Part shown: in pieces, positions 135 through 50,025 of the stretch | Position numbering within the stretch: the first letter of the stretch is position 1 | How the letters are laid out: each line of letters begins with the position of its first letter | Source: Polyangiaceae bacterium | Lineage (GTDB): Bacteria; Myxococcota_A; Polyangia; Polyangiales; Polyangiaceae | Reading direction: 5' to 3' | DNA: 64,000 nucleotides | Assembly: GCA_046351395.1 (NCBI GenBank) | Contig: JAXLYP010000017.1 | Coordinates: 129,508-193,507 of the forward strand | Translations under genes and position numbers: made by a program | Notes under the pieces: model-generated | The model's database searches: none | What the model was told of the DNA's origin: nothing | What the model saw: the letters and a program-made list of their open reading frames with translations, nothing else

Positions 135-1968
135 TCAGGGGCTCTTCTTCTGCTTCACGACGAACTGGACCCGGCGGTTCTTCTGGCGGCCTTCGTCGGT
201 GTCATTGTCTGCGATGGGGACGTCCATGCCGTAGCCCTTCGCCGTGAGACGCTTCTCGTCCACGCCCCGGTTCACGAGCGCGTTCTTCACGGTGATCGCG
301 CGCGCGTTCGAGAGCGTCGCGTTGTAGATCCGCCCGCCGCGATTGTCCGTGTGGCCCTGGACCTCGACGAGCGTGAGCTCGGGGTGGTCCTTCAGCACCT
401 TGGCGACCGCGTCGAGCAGCGCGCTCGAGACCGGCTTGATCGTCGCGCGGCCCGTGTCGAACTGGACCTGCTGCAGGATGACGATCTCGGTGTCCGTCAG
501 GATGACGTCCGACGGCGGGCACCCGCGCTTGGAAGGATCCGCGCTGTCGACGCCCTTCTCCTTCGGGCACGCGTCCACGTCGTCGCGGAAGCCGTCCCCG
601 TCCGTGTCGGGGGGGCAGCCGTTCTTCGCCGGATCGGGATCGGCGACGCCCGGGATCTGCGGGCACGCGTCCTTGTCGTCGGCGATGGTGTCGCCGTCCG
701 CGTCCCCCACCGGGCAGCCGTTCTTCTTCGGATCGGGGTCGGCCACGCCGGGGATCTTCGGGCACGCGTCCACGTCGTCGAGGATCGTGTCTTGGTCCGC
801 GTCGCGGATCGGGCACCCGTTCTTCTTCGGATCTGGATCGGCGATGCCGGCTTCGTCGGGGCACGCGTCGCCCGGATCGAGGATGCCGTCTTTGTCGCGG
901 TCGCCTGGAGGCGGGCAGCCGTTCTTCTTGGGATCCTCGCTCCTCTCGCCCTTGACCTTCGGACACGCGTCCGCGTCGTCGAGGATCCCGTCGCCGTCGG
1001 TGTCGAGCACGGGCGGCTTCGGCTCGGGCGTGTAGAAGAAGCTGAACACGCCGCGGAAGTCCGGCGTCCCGACGCCCGACGTGAAACCTGGACCGACACC
1101 GACGCCGACCTCGAGCGGGGAGACGAACCGGTACCTCACGCCCGCGAGCGCCTCGAAGTTCGTGCTCTGGTTCGTGATGTTCTCGACCGTCACGCCGCCC
1201 GTGGCCTCGAGGCCGATCTGGAAGTTGCGCGCCGAGCCGAGCAGCGCGCCGACCCCCGCGCCCCACACGAACTCGTGGCCGTGCGTGAGCGATGCGAACT
1301 CGCGCCGCCCCCGGAGCGTCGCCCCGGCCATGACCGAATAGATGAAGCGGTCCGCGCGCCCTCCGACCAGCAGGTGCGCTTGCCCTTTGGCGGTTCCGTT
1401 GCCGAGGAAGTCTCCCCCCGTCGCCGTCGGGATCCAGACATACCCGCCGACGCCGATCTGAAAGGGCGCGAAATAGTCTCCGAAGATGCGCACGCGCGCG
1501 CCCAGGCGGAGATCTCCGACGCCCGGCTCATTGGGCGATTGGAAGCCGCTCGCTCCGGTGAAACCACCGCCGCTCACGGCGCCGTCCCCTTGGTTGAGGA
1601 GCGCGAACGGCATATCCGCGTTGAGCTCGATCCGATCGAACAGAGAGAACGCGAGGTTCACGTGCAGGAACATCTGGTGCTCGACGATCGCGCCGATCAA
1701 CGTTCCATCGGCTGCGGCGAGGACGAGCGGATCGTGGGCGTAGTCGAGGACCACTCCTCCGTGGAACGCGACCTTCCCGGGCGCGTATGGCGAGGGGACG
1801 CCGAAGAAGCGATCCCCGGCGGGGGCCGGGTCGAACTCGGGGAGGTCGAGGTCTTGGCGGTCCTGTGCGAGCGACGTGGCCGGCGTGAGCGCCAGCGCTC
1901 CGACGAGCGACGCGAGGGTGTACGAACGTACCCGGCGGCTGACGGTCATCGGCGCCATCAGAGCATGT
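135..1968 (-). CDS. OmpA-family outer-membrane protein with N-terminal beta-barrel-like region, five thrombospondin type-3 (calcium-binding DxDxDGxxDxxD) repeats and C-terminal OmpA peptidoglycan-binding domain
   Basis: Translation has signal peptide MAPMTVSRRVRSYTLASLVGALALTPATSLAQD. Repeated DTDGDGILDDADACP / DKDGILDPGDACP / DADGDTIADDKDACP units. C-terminal TDNRGG...NxxLSxxRA...V motif typical of OmpA. ATG placed at 1968 (first Met followed by a signal peptide); the longer ORF to 2930 is read-through of the overlapping neighbour. Confidence 0.8.
560..1000. repeat. Tandem ~75-105 nt DNA repeats encoding thrombospondin type-3 calcium-binding motifs
   Basis: Recurrent gggcagccgttcttcttcggatcggggtcggc... 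units visible by eye, matching the repeated DPDPKKNGCP...D.D.DG peptide motif. Confidence 0.6.
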
Positions 1969-4641
1969 GCGGCGGGTCGGTCGTCAAGTCGACGACGCGC
2001 GTGTTCGTCTTGTTCCGGATGAGGGTGAACGCGAACCCGGGACCGCACGCGAACGAGGGCGGCTCCACCATGACCGACCCCACGTCGGCGAGGACGATCG
2101 GCTTCGGCGCTTGCCCCGGGGGACCGCGCCACAGAAACCACGCGTGGTTCTCCTCCTCGACCGCGAACTCCGTGACTCCGTCGCTGCACCCACCCCAGCC
2201 GGTCGCGGAGACGGTGTTCGGGATCTCCACGCACCCCCCCGACGGCGGACAGCGGAGGCGGCCCGAGAACGTGATGCCCGCTTCGTCGCACGCGACGTCG
2301 AGGTAGCCGCCTACCGGGAGCGTGCGCAGCGTGGGCGCGTCCTCGGCGCGCCACGTCACGAGGCCGCTCCGCGACTCGAGGCTCGTGTCGTAGAGGTAGA
2401 GGTAGGTCGTGTCTCCGGAGCGACAGCCTGCGTCGAGATCCAGGTATCCGTCGAGTTCGCCGAGCTCGCGGGCCGGTGCGTCCAGCGGCTCGTCGTAGAC
2501 ATGGAGCGGAGTCGTGTTCGCCGGGATCGGCGCGTCCGGATCGCTGGGCTTCTTGAGGGGCATCCGGCCCATCAAGAGCGTCTTGTCCCACGCGACCCAG
2601 ACGCGTGGATCGTCCCAGTCGCTCGTTCTGACGCGCCGCTCGACGACCTCCTCCCCGCCCTGCGCGATGCGCGTGATCGCGACCTCGCCGCGCTTCGATC
2701 CCCGCGGACGAAGCGCGGCTCGTCCCGGCCCGCGTGGGTGCCCTGCCAGAGGTCCGGGAGGTCGAGGATCGGCCGCTCCGGACCGACGCGCGGCAGAAGC
2801 GCGAGCCCGTGATCCGTCGCGACCAGGACAACGTCGCCGAGCGGCGGTGACGACACCACGGCTCCGATGCTCCCTTTCGGGGCGCTATACGTCGCGCAGT
2901 CCATCCCCGCCTTTGAGAAATCACAGACAATCATCGAGCGGGTCGTGCGGAACGTCCGCCGTCGGATGCCCCCTCCGCGGAGCTTCGTCGTGCCGAGATC
3001 GTCCGACGCGTTGGCGCTGATCGGCTGACTCCCGGGGGCCTCCATGTCCAGCGCCGCCGTCGTGAGCTGCGGCGGTGTGAGCTTGGGATCCACCTTGCCG
3101 CCGTCGAGCCCGAGCCCCGAGCTCCCGTCGAGCGCGTTCTCGAGCGCTGCTGCTACGCCCTCGTTTGGAATGTCTGCGGGACGGGCGAGCGCGTCCATTT
3201 GCTTCGCGAAGCTCTGCGCGTGCGTGCTCGCGCGGTCGACGAGGTCGGCAACGACGCGCGCATAGCGCACGCAGCCGAGGAGGTCGCTCTTCGCCTCGCT
3301 CGACGGCAGCGGCGCCCCCCTCCGCGCTCCCTCGAGGCGGTTCAGCGTCTTCTGGAGGTCCAAGCGGCGTCGCAGCTCGCTCACCGCCTCGTCCTTCTCG
3401 GGGACCTTGCCGAGCGCGCACGCGAGGAAGCTCGCCCACGCGTCTCGGCGTGCCCGATCGGTCGTGTGTCCCTCGTACCAAAGCGCGAACGACACGCCGG
3501 CGACCACGAGCGCGGGGATCACGGAGAGCTTGAGGAAGAGGCGGAGGCGCTTGGCTCGCTCCTCTCGGTAACGAGCCTCCGCCCCGCGGACCTCCGCGTC
3601 GACGTCCGCGCCTTGGAGGCGAGCGGTGCTCGTGGGCCCCAGGGTCTCCGAGGCGGCGGCCGTTCGGGCCGCGCTCTCGGGGGCTCCGCTCGCGGACTCG
3701 GCGGCGGGGCGAGGCGGGGGGGCCGTCGGCTCCGACGCGGACGCCTCGGGGATGACGAGGGGGGTACGCCGAGTCACGCCGAGCGCCGCGGCGAGCGCGG
3801 TCACGGCGCCTCCGGCGGTCGCGAACCGAGCCTCGGGATCTCGGTTCACGCAGCGCACGAAGAAATCGTCGAACGCGTCCCCGGCGTGGTCGAACAGGGG
3901 CACCACGGCGCCCTGCTCTCGCGCGCGCTCGCTCGCCTTCGCGAGGTCGTCCGCGACGAGCTCTTTCATGATCGCGAACGCGGATTCGCCCAGCCAATAC
4001 GGGGTCCCCACGAGCGCTCGATAGGCGATGAGTCCGAGCGGCCAAATGTCTGCGCGCGGCCCGACCGCGGCCCGGCCGTCGCCCTGTTCGGGCGCCATGT
4101 ATGCGATCGTCCCGCCCGCCGTCGTCCCCGTGTGCGTCGCCTGCTCGAGGATCTTCGCGATCCCGAAGTCGAGCACCTTCACCACGTTGGGGCGACCGGG
4201 GCGCGCCTGGATGAACAGGTTCTCCGGCTTGATGTCTCGGTGCACCACGCCCTTCGCGTGTGCGCTGTCGAGCGCCTCGGCGGTCTGCCGAAGGACCTCG
4301 ACGAGCGTCTCGGGCTCGAGCGTGCGCACTCGATCCAGGATCTGCCCGAGGTCCCGGCCGGACAGATATTCCATGACGAGCCAGGGAGAGCCCGCCTCGT
4401 CCCGCCCCGCGTCGAGGACGTCGACGATGTGGGTCGCGTCCTCGATGCGCGCGCCGATCTGGGCCTCCTGCAGGAACCGCTCGACCGTCGTCGGATCCGT
4501 GAGGAGGTGAGGCAGCACGATCTTGAGCGCGCCGCGCTTCTTCGTGCGGCGGTGGTGGACGACGTACACCTCGCCCATGCCGCCCGACCCGAGCAAACGC
4601 TCGACGACGTACTTGTCGAAGCTGTCGCCAGGCCGCAGCAC
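1958..4641 (-). CDS. Receptor-like Ser/Thr protein kinase (N-terminal kinase domain, Pro/Ala-rich linker, one TM helix, Cys-rich periplasmic C-terminal domain); frame disrupted once near 2700
   Basis: MLRPGDSFDKYVVERLLGSGGMGEVY... HRDIKPENL, DFG, APE motifs. TM segment LFLKLSVIPALVVAGVSFALWY. The C-terminal ~205 aa lie in a different frame (ORF 1958..2575) and are homologous to the C-terminus of the paralogue at 4764..7524 (WDKTLL/WDKMIL, TTYLYLY/ATYVYIG, CGPGFAF/CGQGFAY, DPPHML/DPPTFR). The switch maps to a GGGG run near 2693-2715. Confidence 0.75.
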
Positions 4642-4763
4642 CGGAAGAACGTAGGGGGATCGCTCCTCTCGGAGAAGAGAATCCTCGCGCTGGACCGGAC
4701 GACGTCAGCCCTCGTGGTGGCTCCGGAGCGAACGCGACGGGAGACTCGCGAGAACGACCCGCG

Positions 4764-7524
4764 TCACCGGAACGTCGGCGGATCCGTCTCCAGGTCCAAG
4801 ACGCGCGCGGACGTCCCCATCGAGAGGACGGCATAGGCGAACCCTTGTCCGCACACGAGCTCGGTGGATTTCAGGCCGCGCGCGTCCAGATCCAGGAGCA
4901 GCGTCGTCTTCCGGTCGGACGGCGCGCTGTCCGGCGCGACGTTCAAGAGCAGCGCGTCGTCCACGGTCTCGATCCCGAACGTACGCTTCCCGTCGCTGCA
5001 TCCGGAGTCGACGCGCTCCGTCGAGAACGAACAATCCCCCTCGGGCGGGCAGGTCAATCGATCGAGCCCGTAGTGCAGGACGAGCCCCGCCTCGCTGCAC
5101 GTCGGCGGGTTCGCGTCCGTCGTGTGCAGGTTGATCTTGCGGAGCGTCGGCGCCTTGCCTTCGAGCCACGTGATGACCCACGCGTCCCCGGTGATGTAGT
5201 CGGCCTCGTCCCCGATGTAGACATACGTCGCGTTCGGGGCCTTGCACGCCTGTTGTCCGCGGAGGTTCGCGTTGTTCTTGAGGCGCGCGATCTTCTTTTT
5301 CGCGCCGTTCGGCTGCACGTCGAAGAGCGTGGGCCACGCCTCCTCGGCGGGGATGTCCCCACCCGTCTCGGCGGCGACGAGGATCATCTTGTCCCAGAAC
5401 AGCCGAAGGGACGGGTAGCGGAGATCCTTCACGTCGACCGTGACGTCGAGCGTGGGGTTCGGTCCCCAGGTGTAGACCTCGATGGTGTCCGGCTTCGTTC
5501 CCTCCTTCGTGTACCGAGGCGCGGCCTCCCCCGATTGGAACGCCGTCATCGCGCTCACGAACTTCGAGCCCTGCGCCGTCGACACTTCGAACCCGCCGGC
5601 TCCGCTTCGAAACAGCATCGAATCGCCGAGCGGCGGGGCTGCATCGGGGGCCGTGGAGGTGCGCATCCCAACAAACTTCTTGCACTTGAATGGGTTCGCT
5701 GGCCCCGCCAAGAAGTCGCACACGACGAAGTCGTCCTTGATGCGCCACGTTCGCCTCGCGACGCCGGACGCGCCGTAGCGCAGGCGGCCGATCGGCATCG
5801 AGCCCGCGCCGATCGGCACCTCGGAGCCCCCGCCGAGCTCGATCGCCGGCTCGACGATGGGCGGCTTGGGAGCGGCAGGATCCGCCGTGCCGGGGACGAG
5901 CTTGAGGTTGTTCCCGGCGGCCCACAGCGTGTCGAGCTGCTCGCCGAGGGCTCTTCCCGTCGCCGCCTCCGCGGGGTGCGCGAAGCGGCCCATCTGTTTG
6001 ATGAACTCGGCGTTCTTCGCTTCGCCGCGATCCAGCGAGTCGAGGATCGTCTGCGCGTACGTCGCGCACGGCTTGAGCTCGTTGGTCGGCTTGGGCGCCT
6101 TTCCGTCCTTCTCCTTGTCTTTGTCCGCGACGAGCTTCGCGAGCTCGATCTTTCGCCGGAGCTCGTTCGGTGGGTGCTGATCGTCCGGGATACGACCCAC
6201 GGTGCACATCTGGAAGCTCGCCCACGCGTCCTTGAGCCGGTTCTCGGTCTGGCGCCCATCCCACCAGAAGCCGATCACGAGCCCGGTGACCACGAGGACT
6301 GGCACGAGCGCGAGCAGGCCGACGAGCTTCAGCTGCCGCCGTCGCGTCGCCGCGTAGCGCGCCTCGGCGCCCTTCAGCTCCGCCTCGAGATCGGCGGGTG
6401 ATTGCGCCGTCGTGGAGGCCTTGGCGGCGCCCCGGTTCGAGGGCGCCGCGGGATCGCCCTCTTGGGCTCCTCCGCGGGCTCCTTCGCTTTCGCCGCAGCG
6501 ACCGCCGCCTCGGCGTGATCGGCGCTGTTGCTGAGGTGCGGTGGGGTCGGGCCTTCTCCGCTCGCGCGCTCCGTGGGGGCGGAGGCCTCGACGATGGCGG
6601 GCGCCGCGCTGCGCGCGGCGCGGGGTTCGGGATCTCGACGATGGAGGCGAGGGCCCCGCGCTCGGGATCGATCTCGACCTCGAGCGCGCGCGCGAGCTCC
6701 TCCACGGCCTCACCCGCGGACGCGATGCGGATGCTCGGATCGCGCGCGACGCACCGGAGGAAGAACATGTCGAACGCGTTCGAGAGCTCGACGCCCTTGT
6801 TGCGCGCGCGCTCCGACGCGCGGGGGATCGGCTCGGAGACGAGCTCCTTCATGATCGCGAAGCTCGTCTCGCCCTGCCAGAACGTGGAGCCGACGAGACC
6901 TCGGTACGCGATGAGCCCGAGCGGCCAGACGTCCGTCGCGGGGCCGATCTTCGCCTTCCGATCGCCCTGCTCCGGCGCCATGTACGTGATCGTCCCGCCC
7001 GCCATCGTCCCGCTCTGCGTCGCCTGTTCGATGATCTTCGCGATACCGAAGTCGAGGACCTTCACGACGGGGTTCTTGCCCGGCTTCTCCACGACGAAGA
7101 TGTTCTCGGGTTTGATGTCGCGGTGGACGACCCCGGCCTTGTGCGCGGCGTCCAGGGCGATCGCCGTCTGCCGCAGGAGCTCGACGAGGATCTTCGGCTC
7201 GAGCGTGCGGTTCTGGGAGAGGATCTGGCCGAGATCGCGGCCCTGGAGGTACTCCATCACGAGGAACGGCGAGCCCTCCGGATCGACCCCGGCGTCGATG
7301 ACGTCGACGATGTGATCGCAGTCCTCGATGCGCGAGCCGACCTGCGCCTCCCGGAAGAAGCGCTCGATGAGGACCTTCTCCGCGCAGAGGTGGGGAAGGA
7401 TCCGCTTCAGCGCGAGGCGCTTCTTCGTGTGCGCGTGCCGGACGACGTAGACTTCACCCATCCCCCCGCTCTTGAGGAGGTTCTCGACCTCGTATTTGTC
7501 GAATGTGTCCCCGGGCTTGAACAT
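4764..7524 (-). CDS. Receptor-like Ser/Thr protein kinase, tandem paralogue of 1958..4641; reading frame changes in the linker between kinase domain and TM helix (about 6440-6640)
   Basis: MFKPGDTFDKYEVENLLKSGGMGEVYVV... in the frame ending at 7524. The TM and periplasmic domain (KLVGLLALVPVLVVTGLVIGFWW ... CGQGFAYAVLSMGTSARVLDLETDPPTFR) are in the frame of ORF 4764..6713. A third frame reads a protein-like linker AIVEASAPTERASGEGPTPPHLSNSADHAEAAVAAAKAKEPAEEP between them. An 11-nt direct repeat ccatcgtcgag occurs twice, 47 nt apart, at the first junction. Confidence 0.75.
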
Positions 7525-7764
7525 CGCGGGCGGATCCTAGTGCACCGGCCGGTTTGAATCACCGGTGGATTCGCGAGAGTTTGGGCGGGAGGCGCGCGCC
7601 CGACGCGCGCACCGGGAGACGGCTGCTGACAATCTGAGGAGCACAGCGACGAGGCCGTGTGGATCGCACCTCAAATCGCGTGAATATCCCGTGATTCAGA
7701 CCGGTCGGTGCTCTCGTCGAGGGAGGGCGAACCTCGAGCGAAGATCCAAGCCCTCCGCGCGATC

Positions 7765-27960: not shown

Positions 27961-28016
27961 GCTCCGCGGACAGACCTCGGCTGAAAGGAGCGCCTCCGGC
28001 GCGCTCGGTGAATCCC

Positions 28017-28664: not shown

Positions 28665-28670
28665 TTGGCG

Positions 28671-31385: not shown

Positions 31386-31533
31386 GAGAAGAAGGAGACC
31401 TCGTATTGGTCATCGAAGCCGACAGGACGCTTCACTCATGCGTTCTTGACACCGTTGGGGCCCATCTTGAACCCGCTCTGCTTCGGCGCTCGCTAAACAG
31501 CGGACATCCGTCTCCGAGACTGGAGCACCCATC

Positions 31534-32889: not shown

Positions 32890-33130
32890 AAGCAACTCGC
32901 ATCTTGATCCCTTCTCGACCCAATGGTGCGCCACCTTGACGACGCCGAGACGGGCGAGATCGCAGAACCCCGTCCTCTCCCGAGGCCCCGCCGAAGGGCG
33001 CTAGCTAGGGAAACCATGGTTCGATTGCGCGTCTGCATCGCCGCCGCCCTTTTCTGGGGGGCTGACCTGGGGCCGCAATTGCTCGGGGAAAAAGAGGGCT
33101 CGATATGCTGCGCGCGGCCCTCCACCTCGT

Positions 33131-33844
33131 GTGAGAGCCGCGGTCGCGCCGCGGCTCGGAGCCTCGGCAGAAGGGCGCGCCTCGGGCGCGTCGGTGAATC
33201 CCACAAGGACACTCCGCCCCGCGCTCGTGCTCCTCGCGATCTTCACGATGGTCTGCGGCCTCCTCTATCCTCTCGCCGTGACGAGCGCCGCGAACGTGTT
33301 TGCGAAGCAGCGCCAAGGCAGCCTCGTGGTCGCGGCGAACGGGCAGATCGTCGGATCGAAGCTCGTCGGCCAGTCGTTCACGAAACCCGGTCATTTCTGG
33401 GGCCGCCCATCGGCGACGAGCCCCGCGCCCTACGACGCAGGCAGCTCGAGCGGCTCGAACCTCGGCCCGTCCAACCCCGCGCTCCGCGACGCGATCCGAG
33501 AGCGCGTGCAGGCGCTGAAGGCCGCCGATCCGGAGCAGGCGGGTGAGGTCCCGGTCGATCTCGTGAGTGCGTCCGGGAGCGGCCTCGATCCGGACATCAG
33601 CCCGGCTGCGGCCTACTACCAGGTGCACCGGGTCGCGATCGCGCGCGGCCTCGACGAGTCGAAGGTGCGCGCGCTCGTCGACGCGAATGTCGAGGGCCGG
33701 TTCCTCGGGATCTTCGGCGAGCCGCACGTCAGCGCGCTGCTCTTGAACCAGGCGCTCGATGCGCTCGCCGGCGGAGCGTCCGCGGTCGTCCTCGAAGGGG
33801 CGGCGAGCGCGCGGCACGAGACGTCCGCGAGCGCGGCCGAGTAG
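33131..33844 (+). CDS. kdpC: KdpC paralogue (copy 2) lacking the canonical ATG (ATG->ACA); only an upstream in-frame GTG giving a 20-aa N-terminal extension
   Basis: Copy 1 has ggtgaatcccATGaagacactccg. Copy 2 has ggtgaatcccACAaggacactccg. The rest (TLRPALVLLAIFTMVCGLLYPLAVTSAANVFAKQ ... ) is conserved. Confidence 0.6.
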   Translation: MRAAVAPRLGASAEGRASGASVNPTRTLRPALVLLAIFTMVCGLLYPLAVTSAANVFAKQRQGSLVVAANGQIVGSKLVGQSFTKPGHFWGRPSATSPAPYDAGSSSGSNLGPSNPALRDAIRERVQALKAADPEQAGEVPVDLVSASGSGLDPDISPAAAYYQVHRVAIARGLDESKVRALVDANVEGRFLGIFGEPHVSALLLNQALDALAGGASAVVLEGAASARHETSASAAE

Positions 33845-33846
33845 TC

Positions 33847-36591
33847 GTGATGGACGGCCGCCCCGATCCCGAGGAGCTCCTCGACCGCGTGAAGGCGGAC
33901 GAGGCGCGCGTCGGACAGGGCGCGCTCAAGATCTTCTTCGGCGCGGCGCCCGGCGTCGGCAAGACGTTCGCGATGCTGGAGTCGGCCCGCCGCCTCGAGA
34001 AGGAGGGGGTGGACGTCGTGGTCGGCTGCGTGGAGACGCACGGTCGAGCCGAGACGGCGGCGCTCGTCGAGGGCCTGGAGGCGCTGCCGATGCGCTCTGT
34101 GGAGTACCGCGGCGCGACGCTCCGCGAGTTCGATCTCGACGGCGCGTTGAAGCGCAAGCCGGGCATCCTGCTGCTCGACGAGCTCGCGCACACGAACGCG
34201 CCGGGGAGCCTGCACAAGAAGCGCTGGCAGGACGTCATGGATCTGCTCGACGCGGGGATCGACGTCCACACGACGCTCAACGTGCAGCACGTCGAGAGCC
34301 TGAACGACGTCGTCCGAGAGGTGACGCAGGTTCGGGTGCGCGAGACCGTGCCGGACCGAGTGCTCGAGCGCGCGGACGAGATCGAGCTCGTCGATCTTCC
34401 GCCGGACGATCTCCTGCAGCGGCTGTCCGACGGGAAGGTCTACCTCGCCGAGCAGGCCGCGCGCGCCAAGGAGCGCTTCTTTCGCCGGGGCAACCTCCTC
34501 GCGCTCCGCGAGCTCGCGCTCCGGCAGACCGCGCAGCACGTCGACAGTGACGTGCGCGAGTACCGCAAGGAGCACGCGATCGCGACGACGTGGGCGTCGG
34601 GCGAGCGGATCCTCGTCGCGGTCGGCCCATCACCGGCGTCGGCGGCGCTGGTCCGCGCCGCGCGCCGTATGGCGGATCGGCTCCGCGCGCCCTGGATCGC
34701 CGCCTCCGTCGAGTCGACCACGGCCGCGATGACCCCTCGGGCGCGTGCGCGGCTCGACGCGAACCTCGGGCTCGCCGCGGATCTCGGCGCCGCCGTGCTC
34801 CGGCTCACGAGCGACGACATCCCTCGCGCCCTGATCGACTGCGCCGCGAAGCAGAACGTCACGCGCATCGTGATCGGGAAGCCGACCCACTCGCGGCTCC
34901 GCGACTTCGTGCGGGGATCGCTGCTCGACGCGGTCGTGCGGGGCAGCGGGAACGTCGACGTGCTGGTCACTTCGGGGACCGACGACGAGACCCGGCCGAC
35001 GGAGGAGCCACGGGCGCGGCCGGACCCGCCCAAACCTCTGGCGCTCGCGCCCTACGCGCTCGCGACGCTCGGGATCCTCGCCGTGACGGGGCTCGGCGTG
35101 TCGATCCGCGCTCGGCTCGACCTCGCGGACGTCGTCATGCTGTACCTCCTCGCGATCGGCGCGGTCGCGATGCGGTTCGGTCGGTGGCCGAGCGTCTTCA
35201 CGGCGGCGCTCGCGGTGGGCGCGCTCGACTTCTTCTTCGTGCCCCCGCTCTACGAGCTCGTCGTCACCGACGCTCGTCACGTCTTCACGTTCGCGATGAT
35301 GTTCGTGGTCGGCGTGCTCCTCAGCGGCCTGATGCTGCGGATCCGAAGGCAGGAGCGGGCCGCTTGGCTGCGCGCCGAGCGCACCGCGATGCTCTACGCC
35401 CTGACGCGGGCCATCGCCGGCGCGTCGAGCGCGGAGGAGATCGCTCGGGTCGTCCGCCGCCACGTGGAGACGACCCTCGAGTGCGACGCCGCCGTGTGGC
35501 TCTCGGGCGGAGCGCCCGAGTCGATCGCTCCCGGGACGGCCGATCGGTCGCGCCTCGTGCGCGTCGACGCGGACAGAGCGGTCGAAGCGCAGGACGAGAC
35601 GGTCGCCTCCTGGGTGCTCGAGCATGGGCGGGTCGCGGGGCTCGGCACCGATACGCTCGCGGGCGCGAAGGTGTTCGCTGCGCCCATGGCGTCGGCGACG
35701 GCGACCTGGGGCGTCATCGCCTTGCGGCCGCGTGGGGACGACGCGCGAATCGACCGCGAGCAGCGAGACCTGCTCGACGCGCTGCTGCGCCAGGCGGGCC
35801 TCGCGATCGAGCGCACGCGCCTCGCCGAGGAGGCGCGCGTCGCCGCGCTCCGCGCGAAGACGGAGGAGCTCCGAGCGTCCCTCCTCTCGGCGGTGTCCCA
35901 CGATCTTCGCACGCCGCTCGCGGCGATCACGGGCGCCGCGACTTCGCTGCTGGACGCGTCCGAGCGCCTCGACGAGCCGCAGCGCGTGGAGCTCCTGACG
36001 GCGATCTGCGACGAGGCGGATCACCTCGAGCGGCTCCTCACGAACCTGCTCGACATGACGCGGATCGACTCGGGAGGCGTCGCCGTGAAGCGCGAGTGGG
36101 TCCCGATCGAAGAGGTCGTCGGCTCGGCGCTCGCGCGCGTGGAGAAGAGCCTCGCGGGGCGTCCGCTCGAGATCCACCTCCCCGCCGATCTGCCGCTCGT
36201 CGCGGTCGATCCCGTCGTGTTCGGCCAGGTCTTCGTGAACCTCCTCGAGAACGCCGCGAAGTACACGCCCGATGGATCACCCATCGAGGTCGGTGCGCGC
36301 CGAGCGGACGGCGCCATCGAGATCGACGTGGCCGATCATGGGCCCGGGATCCCCGAGGCCGCCCAGAAGCGCGTGTTCGAGAAGTTCTACCGAGGGGTTG
36401 GAGAGCGACCGGGCGGCGTGGGGCTGGGCCTCGCGATCTGTCGCGGGATCGTCGAGGCGCACGGCGGCGCCATCGCGGTCACGAACCGGCCCGGGGGTGG
36501 CGCGCTCTTCCGGATCTCGCTGCCGCTCGTCGAGTCTCCCCCCGTGCCCTCCGAGCCCCCACCGCCGGGCGATGCGGAGGCCGCGCGATGA
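33847..36591 (+). CDS. kdpD: Sensor histidine kinase KdpD (intact; KdpD N-terminal sensor/Usp, four TM helices, GAF-like, HisKA, HATPase)
   Basis: 914 aa. GAAPGVGKTFAML P-loop. TM block. H-box SAVSHDLRTPLAAITGA. N/G boxes (LLENAAKYTP, GVGLGLAICRGIVEAHGG). Confidence 0.9.
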   Translation: MMDGRPDPEELLDRVKADEARVGQGALKIFFGAAPGVGKTFAMLESARRLEKEGVDVVVGCVETHGRAETAALVEGLEALPMRSVEYRGATLREFDLDGALKRKPGILLLDELAHTNAPGSLHKKRWQDVMDLLDAGIDVHTTLNVQHVESLNDVVREVTQVRVRETVPDRVLERADEIELVDLPPDDLLQRLSDGKVYLAEQAARAKERFFRRGNLLALRELALRQTAQHVDSDVREYRKEHAIATTWASGERILVAVGPSPASAALVRAARRMADRLRAPWIAASVESTTAAMTPRARARLDANLGLAADLGAAVLRLTSDDIPRALIDCAAKQNVTRIVIGKPTHSRLRDFVRGSLLDAVVRGSGNVDVLVTSGTDDETRPTEEPRARPDPPKPLALAPYALATLGILAVTGLGVSIRARLDLADVVMLYLLAIGAVAMRFGRWPSVFTAALAVGALDFFFVPPLYELVVTDARHVFTFAMMFVVGVLLSGLMLRIRRQERAAWLRAERTAMLYALTRAIAGASSAEEIARVVRRHVETTLECDAAVWLSGGAPESIAPGTADRSRLVRVDADRAVEAQDETVASWVLEHGRVAGLGTDTLAGAKVFAAPMASATATWGVIALRPRGDDARIDREQRDLLDALLRQAGLAIERTRLAEEARVAALRAKTEELRASLLSAVSHDLRTPLAAITGAATSLLDASERLDEPQRVELLTAICDEADHLERLLTNLLDMTRIDSGGVAVKREWVPIEEVVGSALARVEKSLAGRPLEIHLPADLPLVAVDPVVFGQVFVNLLENAAKYTPDGSPIEVGARRADGAIEIDVADHGPGIPEAAQKRVFEKFYRGVGERPGGVGLGLAICRGIVEAHGGAIAVTNRPGGGALFRISLPLVESPPVPSEPPPPGDAEAAR

Positions 36592-36670: not shown

Positions 36671-37195
36671 ATGCGACTCCAACTCCTCAAGCTCGCGGCC
36701 AAGCGGCCGCTCGTCGCGCTCTTCGGAGCGCTCCTCCTCGTAGGTGCCGCGGTCGCGGCGCCGATCGCGCTGGTCGCGTCGAGCGGCGGTTCGGAGGCGA
36801 GCGCGGCGAACCCGCGGTCCCTGATCGGCCGCCTGTGGCTCGATCGCTACCCGGGCAAGCCGCGCGACGAGGTCGATCTGATCCTCTTCTTCGGCAGCGG
36901 GTTCGGCGTCTACGAGCACGGGTCGCGCTACAAGGCGTCGATGGAATTCTTCGAGTTCGAGCGGCAAGGGGGCGCCGTCGAGGTGCACTTCTTCCAGGAC
37001 GACTCGCGCATGAAGACGAAGTTCGAGATCTCCGCGTGCTCGGACGATCGGAACTTCGACCTTTGCCTCGACTTCAAGAACTCCCCGCGCGGTCCCAAGC
37101 GCTACTACTCGTGGGGACGCGACGGTGACGACGCCGCGCACGTCCCCTGGGCGGAGGATTGGAAGCGAGGCGCCGAGGCGCGCGTGACGCGGTGA
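36671..37195 (+). CDS. Hypothetical secreted protein
   Basis: MRLQLLKLAAKRPLVALFGALLLVGAAVAAPIALVAS signal-like N-terminus. 174 aa. No known domain. Confidence 0.5.
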   Translation: MRLQLLKLAAKRPLVALFGALLLVGAAVAAPIALVASSGGSEASAANPRSLIGRLWLDRYPGKPRDEVDLILFFGSGFGVYEHGSRYKASMEFFEFERQGGAVEVHFFQDDSRMKTKFEISACSDDRNFDLCLDFKNSPRGPKRYYSWGRDGDDAAHVPWAEDWKRGAEARVTR

Positions 37196-37235
37196 CCGGC
37201 TTGACGCGCCTCGCGCGGAGGGCGACGTCAGCCGC

Positions 37236-38018
37236 ATGACGGATCGAGTCAGCATCGAGCAGCGCGGCCACGTCCTCCTCATCGGGATCCAGCGCCCAGA
37301 GAAGCGCAACGCGTTCGACCTCGCGATGATCGACGCCCTGGGCGCCGCGTACCAGCGCCTCGGGGACGACCCCACGATCCGCGCCGGCGTCGTCTTCGCG
37401 CACGGCGCCCACTTCTCCGCGGGCCTCGAGCTCACGGAGGTGGGGCCGGCGGTCCTCGAGCACGGCCCGAAGGCGCTCGGCGGCGCGCACGCGTACGATC
37501 CGTTCGCGATGTGGGGCCCGCGCGTCCCGAAGCCCGTCGTGATCGCGCTCCAGGGCATCGCGTTCACGCTGTCGATCGAGCTCGCGCTCGCGAGCGACAT
37601 CGTCGTCGCGGCGACGGACGTCCGCTTCCGCCAGCTCGGCTGAGGTCGGTCGCGGTATCGTGCCGTTCGGCGGCGCCACGATGCGCGCCCCTCGGCACCT
37701 CGGCGAAGGAACGCGATGCGCTTCCTCCTCACCGGCGAGGAGTTCGGCGCGGAGGTCGCGCTGCGCATCGGCCTCGTGCAGGAGGTCGTCCCCGTCGGTC
37801 AGCAGGTCGAGCGGGCCGCCGAGATCGCCGCGCTCATCGCCAAGCAATCCCCGACCGCGGTGCGCACCACGCTCGAGAACGCGCGCCTCGAAATGTCCGA
37901 GGGCACGGACAGCGCGCGCGCTCACCTCCTCGACACGCTGCCCAAGATCATGTCGAGCGAGGACGCGCGCGAGGGTGTGCAGAGCTTCATCGAGCGCCGC
38001 GAAGCCGTGTTCAAGTGA
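37236..38018 (+). pseudogene. Enoyl-CoA hydratase/isomerase (crotonase) family gene interrupted by a compensating +1/-1 frameshift pair about 60 nt apart
   Basis: Frame 0 ends at TGA 37641. The conserved motif ...EVGRGIVPFGGATMRAPRHLGEG is readable only in the +1 frame 37642-37705. The gene then resumes in frame 0 (MRFLLTGEEFGAEVALRIGLVQEVVP...). Confidence 0.7.
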
Positions 38019-38025
38019 GCGGCGC

Positions 38026-38865
38026 TCAGCGGTGGTAGTTGTGGGGCTGGTTCGGGTTCTGCGGCCCCGGCCCGACGACGCCGCCGCCGGTGGGGTTGGT
38101 CGGGTAGCGCGGCTTCTCGGGCTTGTACTCGTGTGAGAGCGCGTCCCGCGCGTACAAGTAGCCGGACTCGATCGTGTACGAGAACTCCCCGCTGTTGAAC
38201 ATCAGCCGGCCGGTGAACTTGCCCTGGATGTCGGTGGGGTTGTTCCCCGGATAGAGGTCGAGCTCGCAGGAGCCCCCGGGGTTCGCGGCTTGCGCCGTCT
38301 CGGGATCGCTGAGGGGCTTGTCCGACTCACCGAGCAGGAGATCGAAATCCGGGCACTCGTAGTGCCCAGGCCGGAGCTTCGGGATGCGGATGTAGAGGTC
38401 CTCGTTGTTGCGCGAGAGGATCGCCAAGTAGAACGCGCCGTCCGCGAACGAGTCGAAGTTCGTCGACGTCTTGAAGATGTACGAGGTGCGGGTGCCCGTC
38501 GTCTGGTTCTCGATGCGGAGCGCGGTCGCCACGCCGCCGGACGTGTCCGGCATCACGGTCTTGATCTGATCGACGTACCCCGCGAACGTCGACGGGTCCT
38601 CGGGCGGATCGGGCTGGGTGGTCGGAGGCGGAGCGTTCGTGTCGCTCGTGGGCTGGATGTCGTCCGCCTTCCCCCGGTCCTCGATCGGCGGGGCTGGTTC
38701 GGCCGGCGCGGTCGACGTCTGCGCGGGGATGAGGGACCTCCAATCCGGCACCGTCCCGACGAACTCCTGCTTCACCGGCTTGCTCGCGCACCCCGACGCG
38801 GCGAGGGCGAGACCCGCCGAGAACCCCGCGATCCCACGGGACCAACCGAACCTACGAATGAGCAT
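38026..38865 (-). CDS. Hypothetical lipoprotein
   Basis: MLIRRFGWSRGIAGFSAGLALAASGCASK lipobox, Pro/Thr-rich linker, about 279 aa. Confidence 0.55.
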   Translation of the reverse strand: MLIRRFGWSRGIAGFSAGLALAASGCASKPVKQEFVGTVPDWRSLIPAQTSTAPAEPAPPIEDRGKADDIQPTSDTNAPPPTTQPDPPEDPSTFAGYVDQIKTVMPDTSGGVATALRIENQTTGTRTSYIFKTSTNFDSFADGAFYLAILSRNNEDLYIRIPKLRPGHYECPDFDLLLGESDKPLSDPETAQAANPGGSCELDLYPGNNPTDIQGKFTGRLMFNSGEFSYTIESGYLYARDALSHEYKPEKPRYPTNPTGGGVVGPGPQNPNQPHNYHR

Positions 38866-40361: not shown

Positions 40362-40367
40362 CGGTCG

Positions 40368-40820
40368 TCAGTCGTTCGGCGCCCCGTTCGAGATCCACAG
40401 ACGGACGCCCTCGAGCTCGTCTGCGGTGAGGCTCGGCCGGTCTTCTCCGAGCGGCATGACCCCGCCGCAGGGGGCCTCCTTTCCGTGGAGCTTCGCGAAG
40501 CTCATCATGTAGAAGAGGCTCTGTTCGGGGTCCCCGGCGACGACTCGCTTCATCGGGCTCGTGGCGCACTCGTCGCTCGCTGCTGCCGCGCCGACGAGCG
40601 CCTCGTACGGCGTGAACTCGAGGTCGAGCCGACCCGCTGCGTCCACGCCGCCCGAGTGGCACGCGAAGGTGCAGTTGGGCTTGAGGATGGTCTCGTTGAT
40701 CTGGGTGAACGTCGGCGCCTTCTCGGCCACGTCGCACCCGGCGAGCGCGAACGCTAGGGCCGCCGCGCCGGCCGCGAAGAGGCGCTCGCGCACGTCACTC
40801 CACCGTGATGTCGATGACAT
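40368..40820 (-). CDS. Lipoprotein with PSCyt1-like (planctomycete cytochrome c) domain carrying a non-canonical C-x3-CH motif
   Basis: Lipobox AFALAGC. NCTFACHSGG ... SLFYMMSF...GGVMPLGEDRPSLTADELEGVRLWISNGA matches the PSCyt1 pattern (CxxCH...MP...WI..GA) except the Cys spacing is C-TFA-CH. Confidence 0.55.
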   Translation of the reverse strand: MSSTSRWSDVRERLFAAGAAALAFALAGCDVAEKAPTFTQINETILKPNCTFACHSGGVDAAGRLDLEFTPYEALVGAAAASDECATSPMKRVVAGDPEQSLFYMMSFAKLHGKEAPCGGVMPLGEDRPSLTADELEGVRLWISNGAPND

Positions 40821-41307: not shown

Positions 41308-41429
41308 GCTCCCAAAGTAGCGGATTCGACGATCCGCGCGATCCGCATTTTCGCGATGAGCGCGTTCGGTTCTCCCGAACAATGGCGCGCGCGGACGCGC
41401 GTCGAAGGCCCTCGCGCGCGCCTCGGAGC

Positions 41430-42477: not shown

Positions 42478-42479
<2 letters not shown>
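41430..42479 (-). CDS. L,D-transpeptidase (YkuD) domain protein
   Basis: Catalytic HGSCASIGCVSM (H...C) motif. Pro-rich N-terminal region. Start assigned to ATG 42479 (MAHLRKRV...), which overlaps the thiolase ATG on the opposite strand; the start is uncertain. Confidence 0.7.
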
Positions 42480-43658
<1,179 letters not shown>

Positions 43659-43662
<4 letters not shown>

Positions 43663-44510: not shown

Positions 44511-44546
44511 GGCGGAGCGCGCGGCGCGGGCCGCGCGCGCGGCGCA

Positions 44547-45797: not shown

Positions 45798-45851
45798 CGT
45801 GCGCCTCGTGCCGAGCTCTTCCGAAGACGAAAGCTGGGCGAGCGCGCTCGG

Positions 45852-46601: not shown

Positions 46602-46655
46602 GCCCAACGCCGCTACACCGCCCACTCCGATCGGGCCAACTTCACGACGTCGAGG

Positions 46656-47687
46656 TCACTTCGCCGCGAGGGCCATCTCGAGCGCGACGGCTTCATCCTT
46701 CACGACGCCCTGCCCCTTCGCGTACATCTCGGCGAGGTCCGAGCAGAGCCCTCGCATGCCGAGCTTGCAGGCCTTTCGGTACTCCGCCATGCCCGCGAGC
46801 GGCGCGGCGCTCTCCGCCACGCGAAAGCACGCGGACGCGAGGTTGCCGGAGCACGCGCGCTCGTAGAGCTCGTGGGCCTTCGCCCGTTCGATCTTCGCGG
46901 CCGCCTCGTCGGTGACGGCATAGGCCGCGGCTTCGTGGAGCTCGCCCACGGCCTCGCAGCTCGGCATGAAGCCCGCGTCGCAGTTCTTCGTGAACACCGG
47001 CTCGGCGGCCTTCGCGTCGGGCTCGAGGATCGTCCCGAGGTGCGACCGCCACGCGCCTCGCGCGAGGAGTCGGCCGAGGCCGTCGCAGTAGACGAGATCT
47101 CCGGCGCCGCACCCCGCCTCGAGCGTGGACTTCAGCCAGGTGCGACGCTCGATGATCTCCGCGTCGCACTGCGCGTCGCATCCCGCGGGGCACGACTGCA
47201 TCGCGAAGTCGCAGCCGCTGCTCCGGAAGGAGAGTCGCTTCATCAACGTGTGGTGCAGGTCGCACGCCCCGAAGAGCGCCGTATCCTCGCGCGGTTGCTC
47301 GAGGAGTCGGATGGCCTCGCGCACCGACGCTGCGTCGCCCCGCGCGAGCGCGCGGAGCGCCGCGAGCGTGCACGCCTCCACGGAGGGGGCGTCGCCATCG
47401 CAGCCGTCCTCGAGCAGGTCGCGATCGCTCTTCGCGAGGCCCGACGCCGTCAGTCCCGTGAGCGCGAAGCAGCTCCAGCCGTCCCCTTCTTCGCACCCGA
47501 GCGCGAGCCATGACGCGCTCTCCTTCGGGGCGTCCGCGTCGAAGAGCGCCCGCAGGCGGCACGCCGCGCCGTCCCGGAGCGCGCAGCCGCGCTCCGCGTA
47601 GGGCTTCGCGCGATCCACGCGCGCGCGCGCGCCCCGGCCGTAGCCAACCATCGTCGCGAGCTCGCGGCACGAGGCCGCGTCCTCCAT
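46656..47687 (-). CDS. Cys-rich Sel1-like (TPR family) repeat protein
   Basis: C-terminal Sel1 repeats (ACFRVAESAAPLAGMAEYRKACKLGMRGLCSDLAEMYAKGQGVVKDEAVALEMALAA). Many paired Cys. N-terminal limit uncertain. Confidence 0.7.
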   Translation of the reverse strand: MEDAASCRELATMVGYGRGARARVDRAKPYAERGCALRDGAACRLRALFDADAPKESASWLALGCEEGDGWSCFALTGLTASGLAKSDRDLLEDGCDGDAPSVEACTLAALRALARGDAASVREAIRLLEQPREDTALFGACDLHHTLMKRLSFRSSGCDFAMQSCPAGCDAQCDAEIIERRTWLKSTLEAGCGAGDLVYCDGLGRLLARGAWRSHLGTILEPDAKAAEPVFTKNCDAGFMPSCEAVGELHEAAAYAVTDEAAAKIERAKAHELYERACSGNLASACFRVAESAAPLAGMAEYRKACKLGMRGLCSDLAEMYAKGQGVVKDEAVALEMALAAK

Positions 47688-48156
47688 CGCGCAGGCGGTG
47701 TCACGCCACGCGAGCTCCTTTTGTCGATCCGCCTCGCACGTGACGCCGGTCGATGGCGCGCCGTCCGTCCGTTCGACGCTGCTCGACGCGCACGTCCCCG
47801 TGCGTGGCCCGGGAGGGAGGATCTCCTCCTTCTTCGCGCCGCCGCACGCCGCGCTCTCGAGCGCGAGCGCGGCGGTGAAGTGTGACCCGGAGGACCGCGC
47901 GGCCGGAGTGGCCGCGCGCTGCAGGTGTCACGCCTCCTCGGCGATCGGTTGGTCCGGGGACGATCCCAGCGATGTCTGGATCGACGCCCGGCGGATAGTC
48001 CTTCGAACCTTCACCCTTCGTTCGCTTGCGCGAGGCTCGATCCGCTGCCTTGTCGGCTTGCTTCTGCAACCTCGCGCGCTCCTTGTTTCGCTTGTCGGCC
48101 CCAGGTCTGCCGCGCTCCTCTCCAGCAGGTGAATCCTCTCGCGGAGGATTCGTTCC

Positions 48157-48443
48157 TCAGCGCCAGCGCCCGCCGCCGCCGCCGCCACCCCCGCGCGCCG
48201 GGCGCTCCTGCGCCTCGTTCACCTTGAGCAGACGACCGTCGAGGGTCGAGCCGTTGGCTGCGCGATCGCAGCGGTCGCCGCGCTCGCGGTGCCCATGGTG
48301 ACGAACGCGAAGCCGCGGGGTTGGCCGATCTCACGATCGGTGGGCATGGCGACCTCGCACTTCGCCGCACGCGGAGAACGCGGCCTGGGCGTGGCTTGGG
48401 TGGTGTTGTACGAGAGGTTTCCGACGTAGAGACGATTTCCCAT
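48157..48443 (-). pseudogene. RRM (RNP-1/RNP-2) RNA-binding protein gene with Gly-rich tail, interrupted by three single-base frame shifts
   Basis: MGNRLYVGNLSYNTTQ (RNP-2 LYVGNL) in frame 0. AQAAFSACGEVRG only in frame +2. VAMPTDREIGQPRGFAFVTMGTASAATAAIAQ (RNP-1 RGFAFVTM) back in frame 0. NGSTLDGRLLKVNEAQERPARGGGGGGGRWR* only in frame +2. Lower GC than surroundings. Confidence 0.7.
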
Positions 48444-49206
48444 TTTGTTGCTTTCGGGGCTTCGGACACGGGCCTCCGAGGAGGCCATGCCACCGTTCGA
48501 TGAAGCCAGGCATCGGACGGTGGCGTCGAATCGAAGGCCTCACCCACCGAGGTGAACCGCCGCGTCGACGGCCATGTCATCCCGGTCATCGAAAGCCGCA
48601 ATCTCCGGGCGTGACGATCGGCGAGCAAAGGACGTCGCGGAGATGCCCTAGTCCATCGAGCGGACCCACCACCCCCTTCGACGGGAAAAACGGAACGGCT
48701 CAGCTGTGCGGAGGGTGAACTTCGCCTTCGCACGGTACTGCAGGGAAAGATCGCAGCGCTGTCCGCTCCCGTCGTAGCCCGTGCACGCGTCCGTCCCGCC
48801 GAACGTGGCGTCGGCCTGCCCGGTGCGCTCACTGGTCCGGAGCGCGCTCATGATCTCGCGGGTCAGGTCGTGCCCTCCACCCTGGCACGATCGGTTCCCG
48901 CACGGGATCTGAAACAGCGCTGGCGCATGCTCGACGACGACTCGGCGGATGTACTGGCGCACCGCGCGTCCGACGGCCGCTCGCGCCGCTCGCGCTCGCG
49001 CCGCTCCTCGAACTCCAGCGACAAGGCCGTCAACGTGGGGATCTCGGCGTGAAGGCGCGGCGCTGCACGTCTTCCAACTCGCGCCGGGCCGCGAGCGCGC
49101 TGAGCGGCGGCGTTGTTTCTCCTGAAACCCATAGGACACCCTAGCACCGATGGGCTCCAGGGCGCCTTCGCTCGATAGTCATCGTCCGCGCTCGACCACG
49201 TCAGGG

Positions 49207-50025
49207 TCATGGCGCGCTCGGATTGAACACGCGCCACGCGTCGTTCCGGCGGGAGCGACGCGTTGAACGTGAACGGCACGACGCTCTCGAGGAAGTGACG
49301 CCCTGCTCCATGGCTATCCTCCGATCGCCGTCCGCGAAGCCGAGCGCGCGGACGAGCGTCGTGCTCGGTGAACCCACCGCGACGCGGAGCGTGTCGATGG
49401 GGGTGGACGTGGGCTCGAGCTTCGCCGCGCGCAGCGTCGCGTGATCTCGCATCCACGCGAGGTGGGCCTCCGGCGGTTCGGGGAGGCCGCCGAGCGCGTA
49501 GCCGCGCACGACGTTGAACGGGATGTCGTCGAGGATCACGACCGGAAACCGGGGCGCGTCGCGATCGTTCTTGGGGAACCCGGGGCTCGGCTCTCCGACC
49601 GCCATGTGAGGGAACACGCCGGTGTCCGCGGGAGGGTCGAAGAGCGTGCGCAGGACCAGGAAGACACCCTCGCGCCCGCCGTCCTCGAAGGACGAGCTCA
49701 CGCGGAGGTACTCGTGAGCACCGCGATCGCGGTGGTCTTGCCGAGGGTTGGAGGGCGTTGACCCCGCCGGATCAGCCGGAGCGGATGCCCGACGGAGTTG
49801 TACGACGGGACGGCGTCGATCGTGCGGAGGAGATCGCGCAGCGCCGCCTCTAGAGTCGAGCTTGGGGCGCTCCTTTTCCGCCGAACACGTACTGCACGCG
49901 ATTGTCTGCTTGCAAGTGCACGCTCCCAGGTGGCGAACGTCATGTGCCCATAGGTCCATACCGCCAGATCGTCGCCGTGCGCATCCGCCGGCATGATCCC
50001 CCGGGATCGTCCGCTTAGTGCGCAC
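49207..50025 (-). CDS. Fragmentary ORFs with P-loop NTPase-like motifs (possibly one gene broken by frameshifts); low confidence
   Basis: Adjacent frames carry LIRRGQRPPTLGKTTAIAVL (Walker-A-like) and, downstream, PRFPVVILDDIPFN (Walker-B-like hhhhDD). Composition is protein-like in patches only. Local GC lower than flanks. Confidence 0.25.
   Translation of the reverse strand: MRTKRTIPGDHAGGCARRRSGGMDLWAHDVRHLGACTCKQTIACSTCSAEKERPKLDSRGGAARSPPHDRRRPVVQLRRASAPADPAGSTPSNPRQDHRDRGAHEYLRVSSSFEDGGREGVFLVLRTLFDPPADTGVFPHMAVGEPSPGFPKNDRDAPRFPVVILDDIPFNVVRGYALGGLPEPPEAHLAWMRDHATLRAAKLEPTSTPIDTLRVAVGSPSTTLVRALGFADGDRRIAMEQGVTSSRASCRSRSTRRSRRNDAWRVFNPSAP

Follow-up and report, generated by a model that had tools for sequence, protein, structure and literature searches.

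The 64-kb stretch of DNA analysed here (64,000 nt, referred to as the window) comes from an NCBI metagenome-assembled genome (MAG) of a Polyangiaceae bacterium, in which it is part of a contig of 246,456 bp, and it contains several genes whose reading frames are broken, some of them many times over. The question raised by this locus is whether these breaks are mutations carried by the organism or errors in the consensus sequence of the contig. We consider it very probable that they are consensus errors, since at every site that can be checked the genes are intact in assemblies made independently from the same strain.

Frame changes and the genes that carry them

Frame changes were called from a codon-usage Viterbi scan together with three-frame views, with switches of frame away from any gene boundary in five loci. 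The original prediction had listed 13 single-base indels at six loci within 1958-50025. All 13 are present, and those in kinase 1, kinase 2, kdpD copy 1 (five), crotonase (two) and the RRM gene (three) were each recovered, but the list is an undercount that covers about half of the real number: with around 12 changes in a lipoprotein gene and one in a DUF3556 gene beyond that range, the window holds at least 26. Net deletions make up about two thirds of these, and the description of every event as single-base does not hold, given a +4 insertion in crotonase and a -2 deletion in the RRM gene.

2690-2705, minus strand: net -1 frame change in kinase 1, near GCGGGG (Viterbi switch at 2697; three-frame view)
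6455-6622, minus strand: two net -1 frame changes in kinase 2, at approximately 6617 and 6460 (Viterbi scan and three-frame view)
48170-48443, minus strand: gene for an RRM-type RNA-binding protein, with three private deletions in an alignment (A2) with six intact orthologues
49160-50249, minus strand: lipoprotein gene of a P0133-like family, broken by about 12 frame changes when compared with the homologue P0133

In kinase 1 the frame of the kinase domain (ORF 2572..4704) carries on in that of ORF 1958..2884; with no close orthologue found, the position of the change is approximate. The kinase 2 changes sit in the low-complexity linker from the kinase domain to the transmembrane/C-terminal region, where the Viterbi segments 6620-7530, 6462-6619 and 4779-6461 occupy three different frames. 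The C-terminal frame of kinase 2 is homologous to kinase 1, the corrected kinase 1 aligns with kinase 2 over the junction with V.DL.TDPP ending both, and in both kinases the downstream frames are still strongly codon-biased, with the Cys and C-terminal motifs conserved. A profile search with the non-kinase region of the two kinases returned the MAG's own protein as its sole match. The public record MFO0616273.1 is kinase 1 truncated at 689 aa, and no public protein entry was found that corresponds to the 939-aa ORF of kinase 2.

The deletions in the RRM gene are of 1 nt at ~48395, 2 nt at ~48358 (in GCGC) and 1 nt at ~48258 (a T lost). The six orthologues were obtained by scanning GTDB genomes, from which the MAG itself is absent, with an RRM 26-mer. 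Apart from its deletions the gene has 9 private substitutions, against 0-14 among the orthologues, which is no excess, and the corrected protein matches RRM_1 over positions 1-70 of 70. The ORF fragments at 49.2-50.0 kb, previously thought to be probably frame-disrupted, indeed belong to one lipoprotein gene that extends to ~50249. Its 131-aa fragment matched 669 cluster representatives, with P0133 as the top match (66% identity), and a frameshift-aware alignment to residues 8-374 of P0133 gives 59% identity with no in-frame stops over 367 codons. The frame changes lie near 50093, 50053, 50012, 49959, 49928, 49869, 49766, 49743, 49714, 49298, 49243 and 49223. The stretch between the RRM and lipoprotein genes, 48.45-49.16 kb, has no gene assigned to it and may contain a further broken one.

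Six long genes that had been described as clean, encoding DMGDH, DUF2169, KdpA, KdpB, the second KdpD copy and an MTase, pass the codon-frame scan. Pfam matches are full-length for DMGDH, DUF2169 and kdpD copy 2; the ORFs of kdpA and kdpB are unbroken, and their translations match proteins that NCBI names KdpA and KdpB; and the MTase is an uninterrupted 2.1-kb ORF with partial MmeI-type Pfam matches. Apparent frame switches at 40.8, 52.6, 57.5 and 61.1 kb were rejected, being normal junctions between genes (two lipoproteins; purE/purK; a third kinase; a GNAT beside the MTase). No RNA genes were found in the 64-kb window.

Comparison with independent assemblies and with the second kdpD copy

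Four contigs from independent assemblies overlap the window. Two of them, L001 (Logan, SRR14234089; window 30647-32924) and L091 (Logan, SRR12908308; 54634-55755), are 100% identical to it. L090 (Logan, SRR14234089) equals 54595-56463 apart from one 8-nt patch in the DUF3556 gene, and L092 (ENA ERZ27248706, contig k141_785746) corresponds to 37070-38536 with 4 mismatches and 2 gaps, all within the crotonase patch.

37495-37708, plus strand: crotonase error patch, relative to L092
55940-55947, minus strand: corrupted patch of 8 nt, net -1, near the 3' end of the DUF3556 gene

Relative to L092, the crotonase patch contains substitutions at 37495 and 37656, a 4-nt insertion (GGCT) at 37638-41, and, at 37705-08, a 1-nt deletion with two substitutions where L092 contains a run of five G and codes for HLGWGN. 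There are thus 6 changes in 214 nt and none in the remaining ~1,250 nt matched by L092, which encodes an intact 259-aa crotonase (P0283). Correction converts the split Pfam ECH_1 match (profile 3-123 and 147-249; 57.6 and 57.8 bits) into a single one (3-249; 139.6 bits). A search for a protein record of a crotonase fragment ORF found none.

The DUF3556 change was flagged by the codon-frame scan at 55891-55927, and switching frame there raises Pfam profile coverage from 545 to 562 of 573 positions with a gain of 11 bits. At this patch L090 reads GCGTTC-GAACCGCCCGGTC and the window reads GCGTTCCGGTA--CCCGGTC, which amounts to 5 changes within 8 nt; the rest is identical over 1,870 nt, and in L090 the ORF is uninterrupted.

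The independent contigs test 3 of the ~26 events (37638-41, 37705-08 and 55940-47), and at all three the frame change is absent, while ~5.4 kb is otherwise 100% identical. Exact Logan/ENA look-ups of neighbours (thiolase, 36671-37192, 38029-38865, 50341/50347-51375, 46659-47687 and 40371-40820) found nothing, two JGI metagenome scans gave no matches, and a literature search for the SRA run returned nothing relevant.

The second kdpD copy provides a reference sequence within the window itself.

28744-29095, plus strand: 352-nt tract of kdpD copy 1, equal to copy 2 but for three deletions of 1 nt each (MAFFT; exact 31-mer repeat map)
28825, plus strand: 1-nt deletion, G5 to G4
29022, plus strand: 1-nt deletion, G4 to G3
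29083, plus strand: 1-nt deletion, T lost
29283, plus strand: 1-nt deletion in a GCGCGC context (alignment to copy 2; Viterbi switch at 29291)
30236-30241, plus strand: 1-nt insertion within a G6 run (Viterbi switch at 30251)

DNA alignment to copy 2 thus gives four 1-nt deletions and one 1-nt insertion in copy 1 (net -3), and these five edits restore a 905-aa ORF whose Pfam KdpD match (319.9 bits) compares with 319.3 bits for copy 2. Within the 352-nt tract the three deletions are accompanied by no substitutions at all, while the flanks differ by 10-20%. Correction leaves kdpD copy 1, crotonase, the RRM gene and the lipoprotein gene without any in-frame stop and with Pfam matches over the full length.

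A search with a kdpD copy 1 fragment found relatives at no more than 61% identity; copy 2 was not among them, so this word-index search is non-exhaustive. Guessed partial proteins across 30241 were absent from the protein collection, as was a control partial protein from L001, the collection being without partial genes. A search for protein records of two kdpD copy 1 fragment ORFs likewise found none.

Distribution of the changes and rival readings

The original prediction that the frame changes are clustered is borne out, the median nearest-neighbour distance being 100 nt against ~1830 nt expected (P ~8e-5). The clustering is moreover sub-genic, four of the five kdpD copy 1 events falling inside 460 nt of a 2.7-kb gene. 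The further prediction that the sites are homopolymeric stands only in part: of 11 precisely placed events, 4 are at G/C runs of at least 4 and the other 7 are not, and nearly all of the 565 such runs in the window are unaffected. The homopolymer-only signature classic for a single platform is therefore not seen. The events are mixed in type, comprising small indels, multi-base indels and nearby substitutions, and occur in patches of 8 nt to ~2 kb with roughly 1-3% small indels and substitutions, most of the contig being accurate. Where a truth sequence is at hand the spectrum is dominated by indels, as seen in the kdpD tract and in the RRM gene with its three private indels and normal substitution count.

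Several candidate causes were rejected. GATC and ten other methylation motifs show no enriched proximity to the sites; local GC at the sites (0.61 to 0.80) is not distinctive; and placement within repeats of the window holds for kdpD only. Neither local GC nor GATC proximity sets the affected positions apart.

Of the two explanations originally offered, localised low-quality assembly agrees with the in-frame independent contigs and with the indel-only kdpD tract, and the same two observations speak against recent inactivation of paralogues. That kdpD copy 1, crotonase, the RRM gene, the lipoprotein gene and the kinase genes are genuine pseudogenes, recently inactivated in the organism or in a sub-population of the MAG, is in our judgement very unlikely. 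Such a reading would account for the concentration of frame changes in few genes, which is expected after gene death, for the excess of deletions over insertions, a bias that natural mutation shares, and for kdpD copy 1, which may be dispensable with an intact paralogue present. The intact Logan and ENA versions could in principle be alleles of co-occurring or sister strains. Against this, those versions sit in assemblies otherwise 100% identical to the window, the differences form tight mixed patches (6 in 214 nt; 5 within 8 nt), the kdpD tract has indels but no substitutions, the RRM gene shows no excess of substitutions, the corrected genes contain no in-frame stops, and clustering operates below the scale of the gene. 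The argument that compensating pairs of indels speak against decay, in contrast, is a weak one, since whichever model applies the net shift will be a multiple of 3 in roughly one case out of three.

A combination in which most changes are artefacts and a minority are real is improbable, if less so than wholesale gene decay. Its candidates are the GCGGGG change in kinase 1 and the two linker changes in kinase 2, which are isolated, lie outside the dense patches at G/C-rich or low-complexity sites where real slippage happens, and have no independent contig or orthologue for comparison. However, the sole isolated change that can be tested, in DUF3556, turned out to be an artefact, and downstream of the changes the frames of both kinases are still strongly codon-biased and contain the conserved motifs. 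Were a subset real, with kdpD copy 1 or the tandem orphan-domain Ser/Thr kinases as candidates, it would point to a lineage now losing one copy of recently duplicated signalling genes, with gene conversion still homogenising kdpD; we regard this as very unlikely. Functional recoding or phase variation, that is programmed ribosomal frameshifting, transcriptional slippage or switchable contingency loci, is hardly credible. A few events do fall at G runs of 4-6, but the sites are without long simple-sequence tracts or slippery heptamers, the majority are off homopolymers, shifts follow one another at tens of bases with up to 12 in one gene, and the six RRM orthologues, P0283 and the independent assemblies are all in frame.

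Taken together, these indirect arguments from sequence suggest that the changes in kinase 1, kinase 2, kdpD copy 1, the RRM gene and the lipoprotein gene are probably artefacts too. In the organism itself the affected genes almost certainly have unbroken frames, and the disruptions are no biological feature.

Origin of the patches and comparison with known systems

The most likely origin of the consensus errors would be a draft consensus built from error-prone long reads, or gap filling with such reads, in which accurate short reads left the patches uncorrected. Polishing could fail where short reads are not uniquely placeable, as in the 352-nt kdpD repeat, where reads would go to the copy with fewer errors and leave the other uncorrected; it could also fail at poor short-read coverage. 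Copy 2 shows no errors, where ~3 would be expected if the copies were equally unpolished, so that an assumption of one-copy-takes-all mapping or of gap filling is needed. Both the long-read origin and the failure of polishing are what we infer from the pattern of changes.

Public annotation already carries these errors as truncated or missing protein records, and this genome would mislead any pseudogene count, pangenome analysis or protein-family survey that draws on it. Patches of this kind can be detected without reads in two ways, by comparison with a paralogue that serves as internal truth sequence and by locating exact-protein neighbours in independent assemblies.

With pseudogenes that arise by frameshift decay the locus shares several frame changes per gene, a deletion bias and, for kdpD copy 1, an intact paralogue; it differs from them in having no in-frame stops, no substitution excess, sub-genic clustering and frame changes that are absent from independent assemblies. 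The closer likeness in our preferred reading, that of consensus error, is to the residual indels of long-read and hybrid assemblies. Frameshifts from small indels are known in long-read assemblies that need short-read polishing, and these, at least as described in two reports (10.1101/2021.08.23.457338; PMC9262707), are mostly small deletions, partly homopolymeric, that split conserved genes, as here. Also shared are the in-frame state of same-organism short-read assemblies and the persistence of errors in repeats. Unlike such assemblies, the contig carries its errors only in patches measuring 8 nt to ~2 kb and is otherwise apparently error-free; of the well-placed events two thirds lie away from homopolymers, and some events are multi-base or accompanied by substitutions.

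Frame changes in the window

The window has a G+C content of ~70%. Its gene content, typical for a myxobacterium, includes Ser/Thr kinases, a pentapeptide-repeat DUF2169 protein, a sigma-54 activator carrying an FHA domain, and kdpABC. By exact protein look-ups its proteins are MFO0616273 to MFO0616306 of the NCBI metagenome-assembled genome (MAG) Polyangiaceae bacterium, the contig being 246,456 bp long; no tRNA genes or Rfam families were found within the window. A codon-usage model was trained on clean genes and a seven-state Viterbi path then drawn over the window, which revealed, in three genes, frame switches that stay on one strand and cross no intergenic gap, the remaining switches being rejected as frame breaks because they are ordinary gene boundaries.

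Frame switches on the Viterbi path
2697, minus strand: Ser/Thr kinase gene 1 (kinase 1)
6461 and 6619, minus strand: Ser/Thr kinase gene 2 (kinase 2)
28824, 29018, 29085, 29291 and 30251: first sensor-kinase gene (kdpD1)

Taken with paralogue and orthologue alignments, Pfam matches and frame views, these data confirm all 13 frame changes of the original prediction. As a total, however, 13 is too low: adding ~12 in a lipoprotein gene and one in a DUF3556 gene gives at least 26 events, 15 of them between 48.17 and 50.25 kb (density ~1.1%). The range first proposed, 1958-50025, holds its 13 events but leaves the DUF3556 patch (55940-55947) outside.

Kinases 1 and 2 are tandem paralogues that, once corrected for frame, can be aligned across the junctions, and both have a transmembrane segment, conserved cysteines and a C-terminal V.DL.TDPP motif. 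In these two kinases (1958-7524, minus strand) the common non-kinase region of ~600 amino acids contains a transmembrane helix and has a C-terminus rich in Cys; it retrieved only the MAG's own protein in a word-indexed, non-exhaustive profile search of 5.8 billion proteins. A third Ser/Thr kinase (57532-58890, minus strand) is intact; the gene immediately upstream of it (58941-61076) encodes an MmeI-like DNA methyltransferase or type IIL enzyme, the two spanning 57532-61076 on the minus strand.

The kdpC-kdpD segment is duplicated (27926-31357 and 33100-36560, 84.7% identity), the copies being separated by a BBP2-type porin gene (31534-32889). DNA alignment to the second sensor-kinase gene, kdpD2, places five indels in kdpD1.

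Single-nucleotide indels in kdpD1
28825: deletion, G5 to G4
29022: deletion, G4 to G3
29083: deletion, T lost
29283: deletion in a GC repeat
30241: insertion in a G6 run

Reversing these edits yields a 905-residue ORF with the full KdpD architecture and a KdpD domain score of 319.9 bits, against 319.3 for kdpD2.

The RRM gene (48443 to 48170, minus strand) has three frame changes, placed as deletions of 1, 2 and 1 nt by alignment with six intact orthologues from GTDB genomes. Fragments at 49.2-50.0 kb had been singled out as a probable disruption; disrupted they are, as a single gene with ~12 frame changes. The 131-residue fragment at 49321-49713 has 669 cluster representatives as homologues (E <= 1e-3), the best being a 374-residue lipoprotein (P0133), residues 8-374 of which align along 50249 to ~49160 at 59% identity in a frameshift-aware alignment that crosses those changes and no in-frame stop. 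No Pfam model covers this family (49160-50249; proteins P0133-P0282). The surrounding 47880-50250 has lower G+C (in places ~0.59-0.72) and hardly any coding signal, the latter because two genes there are full of frame changes; 48.45-49.16 kb may hold another broken gene. An ORF at 48651-49178 (minus strand) has patches of high GC3.

In the crotonase gene the ECH_1 Pfam match is split (profile 3-123 and 147-249), an in-frame stop lying between the two parts, and the motif absent from the split match, EVGRGIVPFGGATMRAPRHLG, is found in another frame; joining the frames gives a single match to 3-249 of 251. A finer codon-frame scan recovered this patch and also flagged 55891-55927 in the DUF3556 gene, where a frame switch extends the Pfam match from profile position 545 to 562 of 573 (+11 bits).

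As predicted, the original 13 sites are clustered, with a median nearest-neighbour distance of 100 nt versus ~1830 nt under uniformity (P ~8e-5). The proposed location at homopolymers stands in part: G/C runs of at least 4 coincide with 4 of the 11 base-placed events (28825, 29022 and 30241 in kdpD1; 37705-08 in the crotonase gene). The other seven comprise losses of a single T, slips at GC dinucleotides, one insertion of 4 nt and one scrambled patch of 8 nt. The window holds 565 such runs of >=4 and 129 of >=5, with 7-29 in each clean gene. The affected sites are not set apart by local GC content, nor by closeness to GATC or to ten other motifs.

Comparison with independent assemblies

A chimeric protein query retrieved an intact 259-residue crotonase, 98% identical, encoded by contig k141_785746 (presumably a MEGAHIT name) of ENA ERZ27248706. 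This contig equals window 37070-38536 apart from four places (37495, 37638-41, 37656 and 37705-08): at 37638-41 the window carries an additional GGCT, and at 37705-08, where the contig encodes the canonical HLGWGN, it is one base short with two substitutions.

Looking up the thioesterase gene (55155-55571) gave two Logan contigs, which we take to be k=31 de Bruijn graph assemblies. One (L091, SRR12908308) is 100% identical to 54634-55755; the other (L090, SRR14234089) matches 54595-56463 except at the DUF3556 patch, reading GCGTTC-GAACCGCCCGGTC against GCGTTCCGGTA--CCCGGTC in the window, and its ORF there runs uninterrupted to the alternative-frame stop. A third Logan contig (SRR14234089) is 100% identical to 30647-32924 and its left boundary lies precisely at a 32-nt repeat common to both kdpD copies, as would be expected of a k=31 graph of accurate reads. 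Over ~5.4 kb outside the patches there are no differences between the window and these contigs, and all three frame changes that they cover are absent from them.

Exact look-ups of further neighbouring genes found no independent contigs, JGI metagenome scans gave no matches, and a literature search on the SRA run accession found nothing relevant. Protein searches with the kinase non-kinase region and corrected kdpD1 found no near-identical fragments; the latter missed kdpD2, although it is ~80% identical and in the collection, so its negatives need caution. Partial-protein queries carry no weight, a control having shown that partial genes are not indexed there.

Assembly error or gene decay

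Within kdpD1 the tract 28744-29095 (352 nt) differs from kdpD2 by three deletions and no substitutions, while its flanks differ by 10-20%, a pattern suggestive of recent gene conversion between these genes. Real mutation should produce mostly substitutions, since indels make up the smaller share of spontaneous changes in bacteria; were indels ~10% of mutations, three out of three would have a probability of about 1e-3. Nor do the genes give any sign of relaxed constraint: private substitutions in the RRM copy number 9 (0-14 in the six orthologues), with gaps in the window copy only, and no corrected gene has an in-frame stop. Indels and substitutions occur closely intermingled (6 changes within 214 nt; 5 within 8 nt), a form of difference that resembles poor consensus rather than independent mutations.

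Genuine pseudogenes or strain polymorphism are thus very improbable, being contradicted by the independent assemblies, the kdpD control, the constraint and the form of the differences. The same four lines speak against the many recently inactivated paralogues offered in the original prediction and bear out its other option, localized low-quality assembly. It is unlikely that a few events lacking an independent contig (those in kinases 1 and 2, for instance) are real, as the sole isolated event that could be checked, in the DUF3556 gene, is an artefact. Recoding or phase variation is the least credible reading, with no slippery or long repeat tracts at the sites and relatives in frame. The frame disruptions are not a biological feature.

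Probable origin and consequence of the errors

Most likely, the contig is largely accurate but has patches where the consensus is of low quality, being unpolished or gap-filled. The exact 352-nt kdpD repeat probably exceeds a typical short read, assuming such a read length for these runs; in that case reads would map preferentially to the copy with fewer errors, the other would stay uncorrected and polishing would fail. Alternatively, a hybrid assembler could have drawn on long reads to fill in the second copy. This repeat-based account is drawn from the kdpD tract and does not extend to the 48.2-50.25 kb, crotonase, DUF3556 or kinase patches.

In practice the errors have already been carried into public annotation, where MFO0616273.1 is a truncated 689-residue kinase 1 ORF (2575-4641, minus strand); the protein collection lacks the 939-residue ORF of kinase 2, both kdpD1 fragment ORFs tried and a crotonase fragment ORF. 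Two reports describe such frameshifts as a recognized trait of assemblies built from long reads and in need of short-read polishing (10.1101/2021.08.23.457338; PMC9262707).
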